IMG/VR virus record: IMGVR_UViG_3300020045_005328
Coordinates: 1-43,740 of that record
Direction: 5' to 3' (one strand)
Origin: a virus
Taxonomy: Duplodnaviria > Caudoviricetes
Length of the DNA stretch: 43,740 bases
The notes beneath the pieces were generated by a model. That model was not told where the DNA came from, did not search any database, and saw only the letters and a program-made list of their open reading frames with translations. This document shows positions 106 to 43,740 of the stretch, one piece after another. The number at the start of each line of letters is the position of its first letter. Position 1 is the first letter of the stretch. A program made the position numbers and the translations under genes.

Positions 106-279
106 TGGCGGCGGCTAGAAGAACTGGCCGCCGCCACTGCTTCAAACTACTCAGGAAAACCAAGCTGGCGGCGGATGGTGCTACGCATCGCTCGCGGAGA
201 AATAACCGTTCGAGAAACCAAGCGCGTCGCCCGGCGCTCGAACAAATGTATGGGCGTGACAATCTATCAAAAGTTGTAA
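70..279 (+). CDS. Small ribbon-helix-helix-like DNA-binding protein; second gene of the solo cassette. The last 11 codons come from the interrupted target gene.
   Basis: GTG start overlaps the TGA of the upstream 92-aa ORF (GTGA). RRESLKL-(ESDWRRLEELA)-(SWRRMVLRIARG) fits a strand-helix-helix pattern. Crossover AAC at 241..243 is in frame. Confidence 0.55.
   Translation: MRRESLKLQESDWRRLEELAAATASNYSGKPSWRRMVLRIARGEITVRETKRVARRSNKCMGVTIYQKL
235..243 (-). other. Right junction (R box) of the solo gene cassette
   Basis: CGCTCGAAC is the exact reverse complement of GTTCGAGCG at 40644..40652, the far arm of the attC at 40557..40650. Confidence 0.75.
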
Positions 280-8088: not shown

Positions 8089-8681
<593 letters not shown>

Positions 8682-29756: not shown

Positions 29757-29958
29757 GAGGAACGAAAAAGCTGAGACATGAGCGCCAACAGCACAAACTG
29801 CAACCAATGTGGAAAGTATCTCGAACACCCAATGACGTGCCCCGAATGTCATGCGCCAAGCGAATAGTCTCCAGCGCAACCTTGCGCGTCCAAATTTATG
29901 ATGACAATTGAAACTGCCCGGCGCTCGCCACGTCGCCTGCATCGAATGGTTAGGCCAC
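29757..29958 (-). other. Degenerate distal attC remnants
   Basis: AAC-N6-GCTGAGAC (29761..29777) pairs with GTCTCCAGC-N5-CTT (29867..29883), where GTT appears mutated. An orphan arm CCTGCATC-GAATG-GTTAGGCCAC ends at 29958. Confidence 0.45.
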
Positions 29959-30182
29959 GTCGGATCATCGTGACCTTCATTGACCCGTTCGATGACGAGC
30001 CTGTGGCGGAGAACAACTACCATTACGACGCCAGACTATCTGCCGATGTATTTTACTCGCGGCATGTCCGAAAAGTGCAACAAGCACTCAAAAAAATCCA
30101 AAGCCACATCCTGCAAGGCCGCACTCCGCGAATCGAAGTGTGCCTAGTGGCCTACGACCCAAGCTCAGCGACGGCGCGATGA
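29898..30182 (+). CDS. Cassette ORF, hypothetical
   Basis: Reads through GTTAGGCC (29949); its TGA overlaps the next ATG at 30179. Confidence 0.55.
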   Translation: MMTIETARRSPRRLHRMVRPRRIIVTFIDPFDDEPVAENNYHYDARLSADVFYSRHVRKVQQALKKIQSHILQGRTPRIEVCLVAYDPSSATAR

Positions 30183-30262
30183 ACCACAACGCTACAATTT
30201 TACGGCCAACGTCCGCGCTGCCCAGCGAACCGCGGGTTCGCAGCAGCGCGATGGTTAGATGC
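30147..30262 (-). other. attC6 (left arm ambiguous)
   Basis: Right arm GGGTTCGCAGCAGC-GCGATG-GTTAGATGC (R box 30254..30262). Left arm is either GGCCAAC at 30204 (57-bp hairpin) or the degenerate GTGGCCTAC...GCTCAGCGAC at 30147. Confidence 0.65.
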
Positions 30263-30406
30263 GACGGGTGGAGCGCAGAATTGGGGTGCGACAAAGAATG
30301 CGAGCCGCAAGAATGGGCAGGCCGATACGGAGGAAAGAACCTCTGCAAACAATGCGGGCAACGAAGCGATGATGATGCTCGTGCGTGGAGATGGCTCACA
30401 AGTTGA
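30179..30406 (+). CDS. Cassette ORF, small Cys-rich (zinc-binding) protein
   Basis: CDG...GC...LCKQCG; ATG at 30179 overlaps the upstream stop. Confidence 0.5.
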   Translation: MNHNATILRPTSALPSEPRVRSSAMVRCDGWSAELGCDKECEPQEWAGRYGGKNLCKQCGQRSDDDARAWRWLTS

Positions 30407-30412
30407 GAAAGC

Positions 30413-30534
30413 ATCTAACGACTGACTTGAGGCAAGACGCCGGAAACGAGCATGGAACGCAAAATGGATACTCAAATTGAAATCAACGATGGAGCGCAAA
30501 ACGGGGCGTCTTTGCCTCCAAGGAATGGTTCGGC
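30413..30534 (-). other. attC5 (122 bp)
   Basis: ATCTAAC-GACTGA-CTTGAGGCAAGACGCC ... GGCGTCtTTGCCTCcAAG-GAATG-GTTCGGC; two extra bases on the right arm. Confidence 0.85.
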
Positions 30535-31039
30535 TTTCCCGCCCGTCTTGGACGTGTGCTGCGGAAGTAGGATGTTCTGGTTCGACCGGAATAATCCCGC
30601 CGCGCTGTTCTGCGATAAGCGCGAAGAAAAGCACGTCCTCTGTGACGGCCGCGACTTGGAAATCTCGCCAGACGTGAAGTGCGACTTCACCGCCCTGCCG
30701 TTCCCTGACAACACATTCTTTCTGGTCGTGTTCGATCCTCCGCACATGAACTCGCTGGGCGCGAATAGCTGGCTCGCCAAGAAATACGGGCGACTACTTG
30801 GTGACTGGCACGACGAACTCGCGGAAGGCTTTCGGGAATGTCTGCGCGTCCTCAAACCAAACGGGACGCTCGTGTTCAAGTGGAACACAACGGATGTGCC
30901 GCTCGATGAAGTGCTGGCACTCGCTCCAATCCCGCCGCTCTTCGGTCATACGACCGGGAGGCAGGCGAAAACAGTGTGGGCGACATTCTTGAAGCCGAAC
31001 GGAGAGTTCAGGCGCACAGACCCGCCGTTGAAACCATGA
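30452..31039 (+). CDS. SAM-dependent (DNA) methyltransferase, cassette-borne
   Basis: VLDVCCGSRMFWFD (motif I), VVFDPPH (catalytic), ECLRVLKPNGTLVFKW; start at 30452 or 30464, inside the attC5 loop. Confidence 0.85.
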   Translation: MERKMDTQIEINDGAQNGASLPPRNGSAFPPVLDVCCGSRMFWFDRNNPAALFCDKREEKHVLCDGRDLEISPDVKCDFTALPFPDNTFFLVVFDPPHMNSLGANSWLAKKYGRLLGDWHDELAEGFRECLRVLKPNGTLVFKWNTTDVPLDEVLALAPIPPLFGHTTGRQAKTVWATFLKPNGEFRRTDPPLKP

Positions 31040-31128
31040 CGACACTCGAACAATCCAAGCCTGACGGCGAAGCCCGCGACTCCGTGCTGCGAATCGGGGC
31101 TGTGTCGTCCTGCAACGATTTGTTACCC
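30994..31128 (-). other. attC4 (135 bp)
   Basis: GCCGAAC-GGAGA-GTTCAGGCGCACAGACCCG ... CGGGGCTGTGtCGtCCTGcAAC-GATTT-GTTACCC; three extra bases on the right arm. Confidence 0.85.
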
Positions 31129-32076
31129 GGCCAATTCGTGAACATCATAAACGGAGACTGCCGAACCGTGCTGAAAGAACTCGCGCCCGAATCCATCCAG
31201 TGCGTCGTGACAAGCCCTCCGTATTGGGGGCTGCGGGACTACGGCCACGCGGACCAAATCGGGCAGGAAGAAACGCCTGACGCCTACGTGGAAACCATGC
31301 GTCAAGTGTTTGCGGAAATCTGGCGCGTGCTGAAAGATGACGGCACGGCATGGCTGAACCTCGGAGACTCCTACGCTCGAAACGGTGGAACGCCCGGTGG
31401 CGGAAACCGTGAACTCATGCACATGGAAGGAACTCAATCGCGCATGTGCAAAATCCCGGCCGGCGCCGGCCTGAAAGTAAAAGACCTTGTTGGTATTCCG
31501 TGGCTGGTCGCGCTCGCGCTGCGTGCCGATGGCTGGTATCTCCGCCAAGACATCATCTGGCACAAGCCGTCAACCATGCCGGAAAGCGTAACTGACCGAT
31601 GCACCAAGGCGCACGAATACATCTTCCTGCTAACCAAGTCTCAGAAATACTACTTCGACAACGAAGCCATCAAAGAGCCTTCGGACTATCCCGATGACGA
31701 CCGGAAAGGGCGCTCCTATGACCATCACAAATCCGCGCCGCCGGTAGAACGAAACGGCGTGAGGTCGGGCAACTATCTCGACTCTGGTCGAAGCTCCTAC
31801 GCGATGAGGAATAAGCGCAGCGTGTGGAGCGTGACAAACGCGGGATACTCAGAAGCGCACTTTGCGACGTTCCCGCCAGACCTGATAAAACCCTGCATCC
31901 TCGCCGGCACGAAGCCGGGCGACGTGGTGCTCGATCCTTTCGGTGGTAGCGGAACGACCGGCATGGTCGCTCTGGAACTCGGTCGCCGGGCTGTTCTCGT
32001 CGAACTGAATCCAGACTACGCGAAATTGTGCGATGAAAGATGCACGACAACCCGAGGGCTACCGCTGGCCGGGTAA
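31036..32076 (+). CDS. N4-cytosine/N6-adenine DNA methyltransferase (beta class), cassette-borne
   Basis: VTSPPYWGLRDY, WLNLGDSY, IIWHKP, HFATFPPDLIKPCI, VLDPFGGSGTT; ATG at 31036 overlaps the previous stop. Confidence 0.92.
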   Translation: MTTLEQSKPDGEARDSVLRIGAVSSCNDLLPGQFVNIINGDCRTVLKELAPESIQCVVTSPPYWGLRDYGHADQIGQEETPDAYVETMRQVFAEIWRVLKDDGTAWLNLGDSYARNGGTPGGGNRELMHMEGTQSRMCKIPAGAGLKVKDLVGIPWLVALALRADGWYLRQDIIWHKPSTMPESVTDRCTKAHEYIFLLTKSQKYYFDNEAIKEPSDYPDDDRKGRSYDHHKSAPPVERNGVRSGNYLDSGRSSYAMRNKRSVWSVTNAGYSEAHFATFPPDLIKPCILAGTKPGDVVLDPFGGSGTTGMVALELGRRAVLVELNPDYAKLCDERCTTTRGLPLAG

Positions 32077-32159
32077 CGATAAGTCCAGCCAAGCCGGAAC
32101 GGGACGCGCCGATTGAAACCGCGATGCAATCCGGCTTTGGCTGCGACGACGGGTTGGCA
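32071..32159 (-). other. attC3 (89 bp)
   Basis: GGGTAAC-GATAA-GTCCAGCCAAGCCGGA ... TCCGGCtTTGGCTGcGAC-GACGG-GTTGGCA. Confidence 0.88.
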
Positions 32160-32681
32160 GACGAAAAGAAAAATATGGACACAGAACACCAAAAGCTAAA
32201 TGCGTGGATCGCGCTGAATGTCACGAGGACGCTGCGCCGCATCTCTGATGCTGAATATGCCGTCGTGTGCGCCATCTGTGAGGAAGCGAACAAAGAACCG
32301 CACCCGAACCTGATGCTCACGCTGCCGTATCGCCACGAAGGACACTGCCCGAAATACACCACAGACTCCGTCGCCGCGATGGTGGTTCTGGAATACTGCA
32401 TGAAGAATCTCGACCGGCTGACTGGTCGCACTAACTTTCAAATCGTGGTGCTTTATGACGAAGGAAACAAAGCGCCATTCTGCGTGATGACTGACTCAAG
32501 AAATGCCGACGACGACAGCATACACGTCGAAAACTGTGCGTCGGCGGAAACGATGGAACTGGCAATCTGCCGCTTCTGTAAAAACCTGCATACCGGCAAG
32601 GGCGTGGCCGAGTCTGCCAACGCCGCGCTATGCGACGGCACGGTCGAACACCAACCAACTACCGAAGCTAAAAACCTATGA
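32124..32681 (+). CDS. Cassette ORF, phage ABA-sandwich-like protein
   Basis: LNAWIA...CPKYTTDSVAAMVVLE...AETMELAIC resembles the P-x-Y-S/T-T-D...A-x-T-x-x-LAIC pattern of that family; start 32124 (in attC loop) or 32175. Confidence 0.6.
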   Translation: MQSGFGCDDGLADEKKNMDTEHQKLNAWIALNVTRTLRRISDAEYAVVCAICEEANKEPHPNLMLTLPYRHEGHCPKYTTDSVAAMVVLEYCMKNLDRLTGRTNFQIVVLYDEGNKAPFCVMTDSRNADDDSIHVENCASAETMELAICRFCKNLHTGKGVAESANAALCDGTVEHQPTTEAKNL

Positions 32682-32817
32682 GACTACGAGGACATCAACT
32701 GGACGGATTCAACGCCTCATTAAAATCCGGCGACACAGCGAAAGCACATCAGGAACTCCAAACGGCGTGCGCCAGAGCCGAGGGCATAGTGCCGTTCGCA
32801 TCAGCAAGTGGTTCGGC
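32615..32817 (-). other. attC2 (203 bp, long coding loop)
   Basis: TGCCAAC-GCCGC-GCTATGCGACGGCAC ... GTGCCGtTCGCATcAGC-AAGTG-GTTCGGC. Confidence 0.85.
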
Positions 32818-33118
32818 CACGGCCATAGACCTGAATCGGTATGAGCAGGCCAGAGCAGAGCGCCAGCGGTGGACACTCGCCCAAAGCGTGGAAGCTCAGG
32901 AGGAACGAATCGCCGCGCACTACACAGCCTTCGCGCACCTCGCGATGCAACTGCGAGAACTGACAGAGGCGAGAAAGCACGGCTGCACAACCGACATAAA
33001 CGACACGATCCGCTTTCTGGCTGGCAAAATCCGCGAAGGCCATCTGATGGAGTTTGGCATCCAACTGGAGTGGCCGAACGTGGAGCTAAACGACCGGCGC
33101 AACCAACCTAAATCATGA
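32678..33118 (+). CDS. Cassette ORF, hypothetical helical protein
   Basis: 146 aa; ATGA overlaps at both ends; starts in the attC2 loop and ends in the attC1 loop. Confidence 0.7.
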   Translation: MRLRGHQLDGFNASLKSGDTAKAHQELQTACARAEGIVPFASASGSATAIDLNRYEQARAERQRWTLAQSVEAQEERIAAHYTAFAHLAMQLRELTEARKHGCTTDINDTIRFLAGKIREGHLMEFGIQLEWPNVELNDRRNQPKS

Positions 33119-33355
33119 GCGAAGCCAAACTCAAAGCCTGTCCGTGGTGCGGGTCTAAACCAAAAACCACAAGCCTGTCACGCGACTGCTGGCAAACATA
33201 CTGCGCGAATCTTGAATGCGAAGCCGAAATATCCGTGATGGGGATAACAAGCTACCAATCCCTGCGTATCTGGAACGAGAGGGCAGGCGACCGCGAACCA
33301 GAGGCCGTCCCAAACGCCGGGGCTATAGCCGGTTCGTTTCAGCGAATGGTTGGAC
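33073..33355 (-). other. attC1 (283 bp; loop encodes a whole zinc-ribbon domain)
   Basis: GCCGAAC-GTGGA-GCTAAACGACCGGC ... GCCGGtTCGTTTcAGC-GAATG-GTTGGAC. Confidence 0.82.
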
Positions 33356-33510
33356 AGAGCGACCCGGGGCGATGGATAAAGAGAGTCCATGGCAAATACT
33401 CACGCAATGGAGACCTGCTGACGATACGAACAGCCGAGGCTCTCATTGAAGAACTACAAGACACCATCGCCGCGCTGTCCAACAATTTTTCCACAACTCC
33501 TGTTCGCTGA
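33115..33510 (+). CDS. Cassette ORF with N-terminal Lar-like (restriction alleviation) zinc-ribbon domain
   Basis: MSEAKLKACPWCGS...YCANLEC...RIWNERA fits the Lar-family LKPCPFCG...C..C...WN-x-R pattern. Confidence 0.65.
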   Translation: MSEAKLKACPWCGSKPKTTSLSRDCWQTYCANLECEAEISVMGITSYQSLRIWNERAGDREPEAVPNAGAIAGSFQRMVGQSDPGRWIKRVHGKYSRNGDLLTIRTAEALIEELQDTIAALSNNFSTTPVR

Positions 33511-33512
33511 AT
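33475..33512 (-). other. attI-like site
   Basis: Minus strand reads GGAGTTGTGGAAAAATT-GTTGGACAG: an R box with A-rich spacer and no palindromic partner arm, abutting the intI start. CTGTCCAAC (33475..33483) complements GTTGGACAG (33349..33357). Confidence 0.7.
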
Positions 33513-34469
33513 ATGAAACTGGAAATCGCCATTGAAAAGATGCGGGACACGATACGGCTCAGGCATTTGTCTCTTGCCACCGAGCAGAGTTACATCGGTT
33601 GGCTCGGGCGGTTTTCACGATTTGTGGCGGAACGGTGTCCGGTGGGTTCACCGGAGCAGAAGATGGAGGCGTTTTTGACTCAACTCGCCAAACAGGATGT
33701 GTCCGCTTCCACCCAGAACGGTGCGTTCTGTGCGTTGCTGTTCTTTTATCGCGAAGTGATGAAGGTGGAAGTCGGCAGGGTGGATTCGTTGCACGCCAAG
33801 AAGCCGGCGTTTCTGCGGTTTGCGCCGGAAATGGATGAGGTTCGCCAGTTGATCGCGGGTCTGCAGGACGTGGGCGGGTATCCGACGCGGCTGATCGTGA
33901 AGCTGATTTACGGCTGCGGACTGCGCGTGTCCGAGCCTTTGAATCTGCGCGTGAAGGATGTGTTGATGTCGGAATCCAAGCTGGTGATCCGGGGCGCGAA
34001 GGGCGGCAAGGATCGGTTTGTTTCGCTGCCGTGTTCGCTTGTGCTGGAATTGACGGCGCAACTGGCGTTCGCAAAGTGCGTGGGCGAACAGGATCGGTTG
34101 AACCGCGTGCCGGTGGCGTTACCTAGATTGCTGGCAACGAAGTATCCGCACTGGCAGTTCTCGACGAAGTGGGCGTTTCTCTTTCCTGCGCGGGCAACCT
34201 GTAAACATCCCCGATCCGGCGTGACGGTGCGCTATCGCTGTCACGAGGCCAACGTGCAGCGGTGCGTGAGGAACGCGGCCCGTCCGCTGGGGCTGGACAT
34301 CACGCCGCATCATCTGCGGCACGCCTACGCCACGCATTGCCTGAACGCGGGGCAGAATCCACGCGCGATCCAGCAGGCGATGGGACACAGCCAGCTTGAA
34401 ACCACGATGGGCTATCTCCATGCGGAGGCCATGAGTGTGAAAAGTCCGATGGAATATCAACCGGCATGA
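33513..34469 (+). CDS. intI: Integron integrase (IntI-type tyrosine recombinase)
   Basis: IRLRHLSLATEQSYIGW, VSASTQNGAFCALLFFY, YGCGLRVSE (R), GAKGGKDR (K), TPHHLRHAYATH (H-x-x-R), MGHSQLETTMGY (H, Y), VKSP. It also has the IntI-specific insertion VALPRLLATKYP...WAFLFPA...HPRSG...R. Confidence 0.92.
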   Translation: MKLEIAIEKMRDTIRLRHLSLATEQSYIGWLGRFSRFVAERCPVGSPEQKMEAFLTQLAKQDVSASTQNGAFCALLFFYREVMKVEVGRVDSLHAKKPAFLRFAPEMDEVRQLIAGLQDVGGYPTRLIVKLIYGCGLRVSEPLNLRVKDVLMSESKLVIRGAKGGKDRFVSLPCSLVLELTAQLAFAKCVGEQDRLNRVPVALPRLLATKYPHWQFSTKWAFLFPARATCKHPRSGVTVRYRCHEANVQRCVRNAARPLGLDITPHHLRHAYATHCLNAGQNPRAIQQAMGHSQLETTMGYLHAEAMSVKSPMEYQPA

Positions 34470-40386: not shown

Positions 40387-40617
40387 ATGAAAATAGAACT
40401 ATTGCAAATGGGATTTGATAAGGCATTTGAACGGATGAAAACAGACCCCGCTTTTCGTGAGAAATACAGATCAAAAACAGATACATGGTGGGCGTGGCAT
40501 CCGGTGCAGTGTGGGGCACTTGGAACAGGGTCGTGGGTTTGGCTGCGTCGAGTCTGGCGGAACTCAGAGGTCAGCGAGCCGGGCGGCCCTGCGCGTCCGA
40601 ACTCGCGGCAGACGTAG
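40387..40617 (+). CDS. Trp-rich small phage gene interrupted by cassette insertion at 40562/40563
   Basis: WWAWHPV...WVWLRRVWRN then continues into attC sequence; the apparent original 3' end (KCMGVTIYQKL*) is at 244..279. Confidence 0.65.
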   Translation: MKIELLQMGFDKAFERMKTDPAFREKYRSKTDTWWAWHPVQCGALGTGSWVWLRRVWRNSEVSEPGGPARPNSRQT

Positions 40618-40650
40618 CCCGCCCGGATTCGCTGCACCGATTTGTTCGAG
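40557..40650 (-). other. Solo attC site (94 bp), same polarity as the array sites
   Basis: GCGGAAC-TCAGA-GGTCAGCGAGCCGGGCGG ... CCGCCCGGAtTCGCTGcACC-GATTT-GTTCGAG; same extra T and C on the right arm. Confidence 0.82.
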
Positions 40651-40692
40651 CGTCCGGTTACAAAATCTCGATGAAAAAAGAACGAAAAACAT

Positions 40693-40721
40693 TTGACAAG
40701 GTAGCTACCTTGTGCGAAACT
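40693..40721 (+). promoter_or_regulatory. Cassette-internal promoter with a perfect 18-bp palindromic operator
   Basis: TTGACA(40693)-N17-GAAACT; ACAAGGTAGCTACCTTGT (40696..40713) is its own reverse complement. Confidence 0.65.
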
Positions 40722-40770
40722 GCTCCCGTGATCGAGATGAACTCGACCACGAAACAAAATAGACGAAACT

Positions 40771-41049
40771 ATGAAAACGAAACTGACCATCAACCACAAC
40801 GGATTCCACGGCTACACATCCTGCTCGCTCGTCGTGGACGGAAACCCCGGAGACCGCGTGCAACTCTCGGAATCTCAAGTCAAAAAGCTCAAGCGCAAGG
40901 CTTGCGGATGCAGCGACTGCAAATGCGGGGAATCACTGCACGCGGCCTGCGAAATCCCCGAACCGTGGATCAACGACAGCCCGGTGTATCTGACCATCCC
41001 GGAAACCGGGACGGAAATCGAAGTGCGCGGGAACTATCCTCAGCGGTGA
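40771..41049 (+). CDS. Solo-cassette gene 1, small Cys-motif protein
   Basis: 92 aa; HNGFH and ACGCSDCKCG motifs; its stop overlaps the GTG of the RHH-like gene. Confidence 0.65.
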   Translation: MKTKLTINHNGFHGYTSCSLVVDGNPGDRVQLSESQVKKLKRKACGCSDCKCGESLHAACEIPEPWINDSPVYLTIPETGTEIEVRGNYPQR

Positions 41050-41135
41050 GACGCGAAAGCCTAAAACTTCAAGAAAGCGACAGGCGGCGGATGGTGCTAC
41101 GCATCGCTCGCGGAGAAGCGCAAACATTGGGGTAA
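41046..41135 (+). pseudogene. Deleted and truncated copy of the RHH-like gene 70..279
   Basis: Lacks 60 bp between the CTGGCGGCGG direct repeats (105..114 / 165..174); homology ends at 41117 (equivalent to 201). Confidence 0.7.
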
Positions 41136-41144
41136 TGCGAACTG

Positions 41145-41528
41145 GTGAAAAACCTGTCATCCGTCTCGGTTTCAACCGTGGGCAAGGTCAGGATCATCGG
41201 GGCAACCACCCTCGGCGGGTTGAAGCATTGCAAGGAAAACAGCAGCCTCACCAATGCTGCGATGGAGAACCTGGTGGAGAACTTTTCGCCGCTGGATTGC
41301 AGTGACGCCTCGCTTCTGTTGAAACATTACATGGTCGGTTTTTTCAAACCCGGAATGCTTCTGATCGTGAACGACGGTGCTAAAAACCGGCTTATCGAAA
41401 TCAAAACGGTGGATGCCGTGGACGAAAAGTCCAAGGAGGAAATACTGTTGTTGAAGCACGAGATCACTCAGCAAAACAGGAAGATTGAGCAGTTAAGAAA
41501 ACGCCTGTCAGATTTGACCCAAGATTAA
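41145..41528 (+). CDS. Hypothetical protein with C-terminal coiled coil
   Basis: 127-aa ORF; start uncertain. Confidence 0.4.
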   Translation: MKNLSSVSVSTVGKVRIIGATTLGGLKHCKENSSLTNAAMENLVENFSPLDCSDASLLLKHYMVGFFKPGMLLIVNDGAKNRLIEIKTVDAVDEKSKEEILLLKHEITQQNRKIEQLRKRLSDLTQD

Positions 41529-41575
41529 CTTTATGACCCCGACTCAACATTGCGAGATGTGTCAGCATAGGATTT

Positions 41576-42277
41576 TCATATCAGGGATCGGACTTCAATG
41601 GTTTCTTGGAGTTGTTTGGATTCTGGTTTGCCGTTGGTGCGTGTTGAAAAGTTACCGGCGTTCCGTTTCCAGTTGGACAATGCCGATGTCCACGATTTCA
41701 TCGGATTCTTACCGACCCGCCATCCGTTGCTTTCGTAGAAGTCGAAGAACTTTTCAGCCTCGAAGTCAGTCAACCCGATCTTGGCCGCTTGAAGCAAGAC
41801 AGCTTCGATGGACGGCTTTTGCGTGCGCGGGAGCGGAGCGACATTCGTACACGAGGGCGAGGGCGAGGGCGAGGGCGAGGGCGAGGGCGAGGGCGAGGGC
41901 GAGGGCGAGGGAGCCGAACACTTGCTAACATTTGCTAACATTTGTTTGCAAGAACCATCCTCAAATGAGGGGAACTTACTTTGACTACGGGCTTTCTCTT
42001 GCCAACGGGACAACTGCAAATATCGCTTCCCGTCTTTTTCGTAGAAAACGGCGAGATCATTTGAAATCATTTGTTCGCAGAGTGAAATCATTTGTTCGCA
42101 AGTGATTTCAGGGTTGAATGGAAATGCCAGCGATTTCAACAGCATGGGGTGAGCTTCAAACCGCCCGTAGTCGTCAACAAGCGTGATGATCCGAACGTAA
42201 AGGGACTGGGCTTGCCATGAGACTGCGTTGAATCGCGTGCTTGTCGTCAGTCCAGGCCTGAGAAATCTTTGTGGCAT
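41576..42277 (-). CDS. Phage replication initiator / replisome organiser-like protein
   Basis: R-x-LRPG...AQSLYVRIITLVDDYGRF N-terminal domain, (SP)n linker, C-terminal AEKFFDFYESNGWRVGKNPMKSW domain. Confidence 0.7.
   Translation of the reverse strand: MPQRFLRPGLTTSTRFNAVSWQAQSLYVRIITLVDDYGRFEAHPMLLKSLAFPFNPEITCEQMISLCEQMISNDLAVFYEKDGKRYLQLSRWQEKARSQSKFPSFEDGSCKQMLANVSKCSAPSPSPSPSPSPSPSPSPSPSCTNVAPLPRTQKPSIEAVLLQAAKIGLTDFEAEKFFDFYESNGWRVGKNPMKSWTSALSNWKRNAGNFSTRTNGKPESKQLQETIEVRSLI
41853..41911. repeat. Perfect hexamer microsatellite (GAGGGC)x9 plus a partial unit, encoding a Ser-Pro linker
   Basis: Seen directly. Confidence 0.9.
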
Positions 42278-42816
42278 TATTCAGTTTCCTCCTCAAGACA
42301 CTTGCGCTTGATGCCGTGGACATATTTCAAAATATCAACTTCCCTGCGACCTGATAGTTTTGCATTGGCGATTTGAAGCCAAGAGAACAATGCATCGCTT
42401 CCGAATCTTTTACAGATCGAAACATAATGGTTGAGCGAGGTTTTCTGTAAAGATTCAACACCAAAGATTTCGCAGTAAAAATTACAAATCTCCTGCCGCA
42501 GTTCCAAAGACTTCCTCGCTGACTCCACGGCTTTTTTGTGAATATCGTTTTGCTCTTGAAACTCCTGAGCGAGACTTAACCTGTGAGATTCAATCTCGAC
42601 CTGATTTGGAATTTGTTTCGCAGCCTTACCTTGATTGCAAGTCTCACACGAAGTAATTAAATTTGTTTCATCATTCGTTCCACCCTTTGAAACCGGATCA
42701 ATGTGATCTATCACAAGCTTCACCTCGTCACTTTGTCTGCCGCAGTATTTGCAAGTGAATCCATCCCTTGAGAACACCGAAAACCGAACCCTTTTTGATA
42801 TGCTTTGGCGTTTCAT
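42277..42816 (-). CDS. HNH endonuclease domain protein
   Basis: RFSVFSRDGFTCKYCG...IDHIDPVSKGGTNDETNLITSCETCNQGK. Confidence 0.88.
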   Translation of the reverse strand: MKRQSISKRVRFSVFSRDGFTCKYCGRQSDEVKLVIDHIDPVSKGGTNDETNLITSCETCNQGKAAKQIPNQVEIESHRLSLAQEFQEQNDIHKKAVESARKSLELRQEICNFYCEIFGVESLQKTSLNHYVSICKRFGSDALFSWLQIANAKLSGRREVDILKYVHGIKRKCLEEETE

Positions 42817-43156
42817 TCAATCCCCCCAAACACCCAATGCATCACCCGACGTTGGAAGCGGCTCATGCCACGGCACTGAGGAAGCGCCGCGTCTTACCGT
42901 TTGCGCCGGGTGACGCAGTGGATTTTTGTTGATGTTATGTTGCATGATCTTCTGACGGGCTTCCGACCCGGCTCTTGCGAGCGGTTGAACTAAATCACTT
43001 TTTCTCCGGCGTGTCACCAAGAATCTTCTGACACAGATAAAAGCCCCATGCGATGATGATGGGACGCACCCACCAAGACGATGCCTTCGGCGCAGTCCAG
43101 ACACTCAGCCAGAAGATCAAAGCAACGGCAAAATATCTCATTTTGTGAATAGTCAG

Positions 43157-43564
43157 TAACCCTGTGAATAAGCCAACCGATGCCGCGCCGCGCGCATTGC
43201 CCGCAGATCGCTCGCCGCGAGCCGGGCGGCCGCGATCAACAGCGCCAGCCGGAACTGTTCCTTGGGCTTGGCACATGAGTGTTGGGACAGCCAGACATCC
43301 GCCTGGGCGTCCAGCCGTTCCGGTTCGGTCGCGCAGGACTCCGCCAGGAGTTTGCGCCGTTCTGATCTGTTCATGTTGTTTTGCCCTTTGGCGACAACGC
43401 CGCCAAGCGCCGTTCCAATTCGTCCAAGCTTGAGCCCACGGACGACTTTTCTCCGCAACGAAGTTCCCAGTTCATTGAACGCCCGCCCCCGTTCGGGACG
43501 CGCGCCTTCTCCCGGCGCACCCCAGCCGTAATCTGCCGCCGTTTCAATTCCCGACCTCCGGTCC
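43157..43564 (-). repeat. Diverged inverted copy of 36828..37235
   Basis: Collinear 408-bp match with scattered substitutions; includes a homologue (43153..43374) of ORF 37018..37245. Confidence 0.85.
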
Positions 43565-43738
43565 AAGCTGCGTCAAAAACGCTTCCATCTTCAATTCTGG
43601 TGAACCCACCGGACACCGCTCCGCCACGAATCTTGAAAATCGCACGAGCCAGCCGATATAACTCTGCTCCGTAGCGAGCGATAAATGCCTGAGCCGTATC
43701 GTGTCCCGCATCTTTTCAATGGCGATTTCCAGTTTCAT
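43544..43738 (-). pseudogene. intI: 5' fragment of a second, diverged intI
   Basis: First 58 codons match 33513..33686 (43683..43740 identical to 33511..33568, then diverged), fused in frame to GPEVGN* of the 36678..36848 homologue; no catalytic domain. Confidence 0.85.
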
Positions 43739-43740
43739 AT

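Follow-up and report, generated by a model that had tools for sequence, protein, structure and literature searches.

The textbook integron consists of a promoter and a cassette array, with a noncoding attC recombination site after each gene. Integrons and clusters of attC sites lacking integron integrases (CALINs) have also been described from phage genomes, with DNA methyltransferase cassettes and sites that recombine with attI1 (Qi et al. 2023, PMC9892861). In tested systems, recombination takes place on the bottom strand at the R' box of attC and, for some sites, at a low rate on the top strand at R'' (PMC5027507, PMC2727003). Here, we analyze the phage record IMGVR_UViG_3300020045_005328 (Duplodnaviria; Caudoviricetes), whose full 43,740 nt we call the window and in which five attC sites and their genes lie upstream of a gene for an integron integrase, IntI. 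The array is probably a phage integron with cassette genes running antisense to attC; reshuffling of the cassettes by IntI likely takes place at AA/C, and rarer swaps at G/TT likely provide the gene bodies with new heads (motifs are given for the plus strand, the slash marking the crossover). As far as sequence comparison can establish them, the strand geometry, the asparagine (Asn) frame, the in-frame stop, and the sharp breakpoints at both R boxes are firm.

Our attC detector uses DNA only, searching for AAC and GTT ends, an L box, and one extra base, and was run on the window and on 97 of 143 fetched loci, namely those in which the region around the start of IntI is present, after removal of partial and distant matches. 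In the window, it found the five array sites and one at 40561–40646, each with a perfect 7/7 L box; all six show R and L boxes, spacers of 5–6 nt, and an extrahelical base, and in the five bodies checked, the ends are complementary over 9–12 nt. In all six, the extra base is on the right arm of the plus strand, which makes the minus strand the attC top strand. Upstream of intI, the minus strand is on top in 102 hairpins across the loci and the plus strand in 7; downstream, the counts are 10 and 6 (duplicates included in both comparisons). The 102 vs. 7 split implies a normal array polarity towards attI and intI, a crossover at AA/C on the plus strand, and consequently, that it is the genes that are inverted. 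Classed by the score of our own hexamer model, the genes are on the plus strand in 28 of 36 arrays, which thus deviate from the canonical layout of a gene on the attC top strand that ends before attC; they are on the minus strand, the normal orientation, in six arrays of the same IntI clade (L046, L048, L065, L088, L107, and L134) and unclear in two (L021 and L096), while L064 and L127 scored as inverted. The 17 arrays from viral collections comprise 16 inverted, one unclear, and no normal cases, and the gene orientation may have been flipped on the move into phages. The direction of the genes implies transcription towards intI from upstream; in the canonical integron, a Pc promoter close to attI expresses the array in the direction leading away from intI. 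The opposite assignment, with G/TT as the main crossover and the plus strand on top, is excluded by the position of the extra base and by the attI junction at AA/C, and the normally oriented arrays show the same geometry. Separately, near-identical repeats of ~100 nt, unscored by the detector, lie upstream of intI in L096, L047, L051, L054, L056, L067, and L098 and are possibly another type of attC.

The integrase itself has VchIntIA (2a3v) as its best solved relative (residues 10–304 aligned, E 2.5e-43), and as this alignment spans a stretch absent from the Xer matches, the extra domain specific to IntI is present. So are R138, K163, H266, R269, H292, and Y301. At the 5' end of intI, the detector found no hairpin at 33481–33512, and the junction there closes the last cassette body over 9 nt; an AAC lies shortly 5' of the intI start in 12/12 relatives checked, and a stop in the Asn frame precedes the intI ATG in 18/19 attI sites. 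One methylase gene, 95% identical in DNA between L033 and L087 up to AAC, continues into attC in the former and into an attI-type site in the latter. These comparisons point to a probable attI in the conserved, hairpin-free junction adjoining the 5' end of intI. A short palindrome (AAC or GAC, 4–5 bases, GTT or GTC) is found at 33494–33505, and similar ones lie no more than 45 nt from the start of intI in 39/89 loci, a count given without a chance estimate; it may be a site for IntI or the operator of a repressor.

As the genes are antisense to the top strand, the standard crossover falls at AA/C, and genes may read across it. With three duplicate loci, duplicate junctions, and hairpins longer than 300 nt or beyond 6 kb left out, the 28 inverted arrays contain 92 junctions: 40 are crossed by a called gene, 16 have a gene ending before them, 10 and 2 have genes ending over the junction in TAA and TGA, respectively, and 24 are uncalled. 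In all 40 called crossings, four of them from the window, AAC is read as Asn (37 sequence clusters from 20 loci; log10 P −16.4, conditioned on which frames are open at the respective junction). Loci found by pattern, without reference to IntI, contributed 10 further distinct crossings, again all Asn, although the pattern scans returned mostly chance matches: 7 of 70 loci passed a strict hairpin filter and 6 of 68 a closure filter, and one DNA pattern scan found zero loci. In the same frame, 69 of 73 attC sites contain a stop, compared with 42 and 48 in the other two frames, 47.5 ± 3.9 (maximum 59) in 500 shuffles, and 3/16 in the normally oriented arrays of the clade. The stop is kept in 40/43 attC sites without ATGA. 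Of the called downstream genes, 39/50 have an in-frame ATG within attC; 29 of these ATGs are in the −1 frame, and 22 take the form ATGA. At every intact acceptor of the window, a gene entering in the Asn frame meets a stop within 6–60 nt; the other entry frames would run for 572–1076 nt at four acceptors.

An earlier, sequence-only reading of this DNA had proposed that attC sites double as translation modules, and most of its observations stand: AAC is an in-frame Asn codon at 30998, 32619, 33077, and 33481, as well as at 241 and 40561; the ATGA overlaps at 31036, 32678, and 33115 are in place; and the TGA on the attI side (33508–33510) does lie 2 nt before the intI ATG at 33513. The stops in the AAC frame at 30423, 31037, 32114, 32679, and 33116 are real, but the left arm, in which they had been placed, is the wrong location, four of the five being 39–60 nt past AAC, within the loop or at its margin. 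The convention said to allow reordering is supported in that it would secure termination, and it holds in the larger set of phage cassettes; exact ATGA coupling to the next gene is frequent but not general.

If cassettes recombine at AA/C, homologous proteins should part at the Asn, and so they do. Among 120 listed homologues of the methylase at 30452, 26 place an Asn at the junction and between them end in 25 different tails; identity falls from 175/260 over the ten residues preceding the Asn to 12/188 beyond it. The contrast is yet sharper for ORF 32678 (ORF, open reading frame): 12 of 23 homologues map the Asn at the junction, have 12 tails, and are identical at 119/120 positions before and 8/90 after it. 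The swappable C-terminal tails and the loss of similarity at the Asn, both anticipated by the sequence-only reading, are thereby confirmed. The borrowed tails are short, with a median of 13 aa, and the tail NGEFRRTDPPLKP of the window recurs as NDEFRRTDPPLKP on an unrelated protein in L019. Across phages, blocks of homology begin or end at AAC and GTT, and the alignments indicate that the cassettes move as units bounded by the crossover.

The sequence-only reading was incomplete, however, since attC and the start codon within it are not tied to one gene: the comparisons indicate exchange also at the other end of attC, at G/TT. The attC at 30998–31124 and a site in L019 are identical at 121/127 positions and their flanks at 11/60 and 17/60; the identity ends right after GTT, the neighboring genes on either side are unrelated, and the protein that begins at the shared start is a different one in L019. 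A common core is also found in L032 and L058 (82/84) with 19/60 identity on each side, and a third, between L018 and L057, contains indels (53/91 ungapped, 88% by BLAST). Proteins repeat the pattern. P0001 is 95% identical to the 30452 methylase over residues 20–185 and has another head and tail, and the methylase family joins heads in all three G/TT registers. Residues 1–46 of ORF 32678 are encoded wholly within attC 32619; of its 23 homologues, seven share the head only, on unrelated bodies and in six cases joined at the same position, and 16 the body only, several of the latter beginning with their own Met near residue 50, and in relatives the body is joined to other heads and tails. The breakpoint of the head swaps is the G-S junction, since the heads found on one and the same body differ up to the residue before G-S-A. 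No fixed frame is seen at G/TT, the 50 genes being spread 14/19/17 across the three frames, so the frame rule is one-sided. Taken together, the tail and head swaps show that two units assort, cores from C to G and bodies from TT to AA. Cassette and noncassette versions of the same gene coexist for both the 30452 methylase and ORF 32678.

By analogy with tested sites, rare top-strand recombination is the likely route of head exchange. Recombination of the top strand at R'' (G/TT on the plus strand) would shift a core onto another body, for example through top-by-top excision followed by normal reinsertion, with the body ends staying complementary. As the frame at G/TT is not fixed, selection would keep only the in-frame joins. 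A broader possibility, which we put forward tentatively, is that IntI acts as a two-sided protein assembler, reordering frame-locked cassettes through the bottom strand and moving attC cores onto new bodies through the top strand. Each core would bring along a stop, a start, and N-terminal residues numbering as many as about 80, in some cases an entire small domain. The same reaction could also create cassettes: a core would be added to an ordinary phage gene, whose own start and stop would then be lost. A rather unlikely but serious alternative accepts the shuffling at AA/C and ascribes the new heads to homologous or illegitimate recombination within similar right arms or to repeated de novo capture. 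In its favor, the right arms of different attC sites are 75–85% alike and top-strand recombination is rare in tested sites; however, homologous exchange should scatter the breakpoints along the arm, and both the window site compared with that of L019 and the heads joined to G-S-A break sharply.

The frame at AA/C, on the other hand, calls for an explanation of its own. Each attC lies in front of its gene and contains a stop in frame with AAC and, in most cases, a predicted start. In the integron as we picture it, ordinary bottom-strand recombination at R' (AA/C) would reorder cassettes without breaking genes, and a gene without a stop would borrow a short tail and a stop from whichever attC or attI comes next. 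While translating the tail, a ribosome would open the attC hairpin of the messenger RNA and then reinitiate at the ATG in the loop; comparable effects have been described for short ORFs within attC, which relieve such hairpins, and for the attI1 frame ORF-11 (PMC8876359). The rule would then be a convention kept by selection, since most starts are in the −1 frame and an off-frame entrant would often fuse with the next gene. Alternatively, it might be a relic of cassette creation, with capture favoring one register and no selection involved. Unrelated genes do share cores, as expected if genesis adds an existing attC, and the joining of methylase heads in all three G/TT registers fits repeated capture. 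We nevertheless find the relic improbable: the rule is one-sided, with no register at the G/TT end; the stop persists in 18 of 20 attC sites whose current neighbor gene has a stop of its own and does not need one; and the normally oriented arrays of the same clade lack the stop rule. We also know of no way for a DNA recombinase to read a frame. Finally, short ORFs and the words AAC and GTT are common, and the detector also scores a simple repeat at 8090–8186, but the notion that the hairpins and frames arise by chance in a GC-rich phage operon or through ORF calling can be discarded with hardly any reservation in the face of the 102 vs. 7 geometry, closures of 9–12 nt, 40/40 frames, and breakpoints exact to the residue.

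Several observations weigh against a phage integron of this kind. IntI scores 249 bits against TIGR02249, below the curated cut-off of 265. Folding energy, tried as a strand test, was weak and lends the strand call little support, the plus strand being more stable in 46/73. Among the 92 junctions, 24 are uncalled, and the gene calls depend on our own hexamer model; the normally oriented control is small, with 16 sites in 6 loci, some of them alike. Four of the 73 attC sites have no Asn-frame stop inside the site, and only 30 show the exact ATGA coupling. Top-strand recombination is orders of magnitude rarer than bottom-strand recombination (PMC5027507, PMC2727003). More generally, the recombination and translation steps are deduced from DNA and protein comparisons.

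Coordinates of the integron and associated features in the window. Cores run from AAC to GTT on the plus strand.
Feature	Position	Strand	Remarks
Degenerate attC (likely), TAC in place of AAC	30153..30256	-	Identified by eye; not scored by detector
attC core, 114 nt	30417..30530	- (AAC to GTT on +)	Stop 30423; predicted starts 30452/30464
Predicted DNA methyltransferase	30452..31039	+	attC 30417 encodes the head and attC 30998 the tail; body residues 26-183
attC core, 127 nt	30998..31124	-	ATGA at 31036; common to phage locus L019
N6/N4 DNA methylase	31036..32076	+	PF01555, E 4e-54; own TAA overlaps AA/C
attC core, 81 nt	32075..32155	-	Stop 32114
ORF of unknown function	32124..32681	+	Crosses 32619 as Asn
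attC core, 195 nt	32619..32813	-	ATGA at 32678; encodes 46-residue head
Mosaic ORF	32678..33118	+	Head 1-46, body 47-134, tail from attC 33077
attC core, 275 nt	33077..33351	-	ATGA at 33115; loop encodes Lar-like domain
Lar-like ORF	33115..33510	+	Crosses attI junction as Asn, stops in attI
Inferred attI	33481..33512	-	Crossover AA/C at 33482/33483; TGA 33508-33510 in Asn frame
Integron integrase IntI, 318 aa	33513..34469	+	TIGR02249 best family; aligned with VchIntIA 2a3v
attC of lone cassette outside array	40561..40646	-	Closure 9 nt
Lone cassette end, site without hairpin	233..243	+	Crossed as Asn

Every start codon in the table is a prediction, and the claim that starts fall inside attC loops holds in part. 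ORFs 30452, 32678, and 33115 most likely do start there: past the right arm, ORF 32678 has no ATG, GTG, or TTG between GTT and residue 71 (25 codons) and ORF 33115 no start codon within 50 codons, and in the 30452 methylase, which matches phrog_954 over residues 31–184, the first in-frame start past GTT, a TTG at residue 33, already falls within the conserved region. We doubt the start at 32124, since the ATG at 32175, past the right arm, has an A-rich leader and is more likely the true one; this ORF has no match in Pfam or PHROG. The 31036 methylase does not cross its junction, its TAA occupying 32074–32076. The Lar-like domain matches PF14354 over residues 5–57 (E 1e-5, below the Pfam cut-off) and phrog_599 (E 2e-9), and the homologue P0144 has the same head and body as ORF 33115 and the end N-E. 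As in the 275-nt site of the window, the Lar-like domain of P0144 is wholly inside an attC loop, and at 5824 of L019, a 250-nt attC encloses a frame of 56 aa.

Outside the five-site array, the likely degenerate attC at 30153 heads a small cassette (30254–30419), whose body ends (30254/30417) are complementary over 10 nt. Decayed attC remnants are seen upstream of the array at 29760–30256, namely the broken AAC of 30153 and, at 29884–29951, a right arm that is 84% like an attC of L031. A lone cassette, 40561–40976 joined to 1–243, is flanked by the terminase-like gene and the next large gene; its body spans the circular junction to the AAC at 241, both of its junctions are crossed as Asn, and its body ends recur in an array cassette of L034 with another attC. 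Its end at 233–243 is likely a secondary insertion site.

The virus record also encodes a major head protein besides the terminase-like gene, and because bases 1–114 recur at 40977–41090, the genome probably forms a circle of about 41 kb to which a tail has been added. That tail, 41091–43740, carries an HNH gene and, on the minus strand, the 5' end of a further intI distinct from the first, and is possibly an assembly chimera. No sequencing run was listed, an absence that bears neither way on expression. A hexamer run at 41852–41917 lies within the minus-strand ORF 41576–42277, which we take to resemble a replication-initiator gene. The simple repeat at 8090–8186 is intergenic and consists of tandem 7-mers followed by their reverse complements, forming a long imperfect hairpin. 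The relatives of IntI come from viral contigs and from genome records labelled mostly as Verrucomicrobiota, and since most carry that label, the phage host is likely from this group.

Overall, we regard the array as a real integron in a variant form: its genes are inverted, its attC sites coding, its frame rule one-sided, and its proteins mosaics of head, body, and tail. How cassettes are formed is, to our knowledge, an open question in the field, and the coexisting cassette and noncassette versions of a gene provide a direct handle on it. A frame rule common to many phages would keep any cassette order translatable in a phage operon, and exchange at two ends accounts for the odd, variable termini of many database proteins. 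In the literature searched, with subscription journals and supplements outside its scope, we found neither the inverted, frame-locked layout nor head exchange; a preprint on a myxobacterial virus (10.64898/2026.09.14.751636) and PMC8352920 were not relevant to the inverted layout.

The likeness to complete integrons, such as class 1 and V. cholerae IntIA, is as follows: IntI has the extra domain, attI is at the 5' end of intI, and attC has the boxes R''/L''/L'/R', the extra base at L'' position 4, and a polarity away from intI. Unlike in those, the phage genes are antisense to attC and codirectional with intI, the Asn frame is fixed, and attC is coding and at the gene front. The first extra base on the bottom strand is C instead of the usual G, a replacement that costs little in recombination tests and is thus tolerated (PMC2727003). 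In the inverted-integrase integrons of Treponema and others (PMC4889954), intI is likewise codirectional with the cassette genes, but there it is intI that is inverted relative to attC; here, the attC top strand is opposite to intI in 102/109 hairpins, so that their relation is normal and the genes are inverted. With the phage integrons and CALINs of Qi et al. 2023 (PMC9892861), our locus shares attC sites and methyltransferase cassettes in phage genomes; those were reported with typical cassette structure, as captured host integrons, and antisense genes, coding attC, a frame rule, and head exchange go unmentioned in the results and discussion, supplements aside. At attI1, ORF-11 and ORF-18, together with the short ORFs in attC (PMC8876359), similarly have a frame that crosses the crossover, a stop from the incoming cassette, and translational coupling. 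That frame encodes a leader peptide and is found at attI1 only, whereas in the phages, the cargo proteins themselves cross, and do so at most junctions. Comparable too are the synthetic protein-coding attC sites of Nivina et al. 2020 (PMC7439510), which encode peptide linkers and were put forward for the shuffling of protein modules; those sites were engineered, and the phage array looks like their natural counterpart, a natural form of the attC-based module shuffling that has been proposed for engineering.

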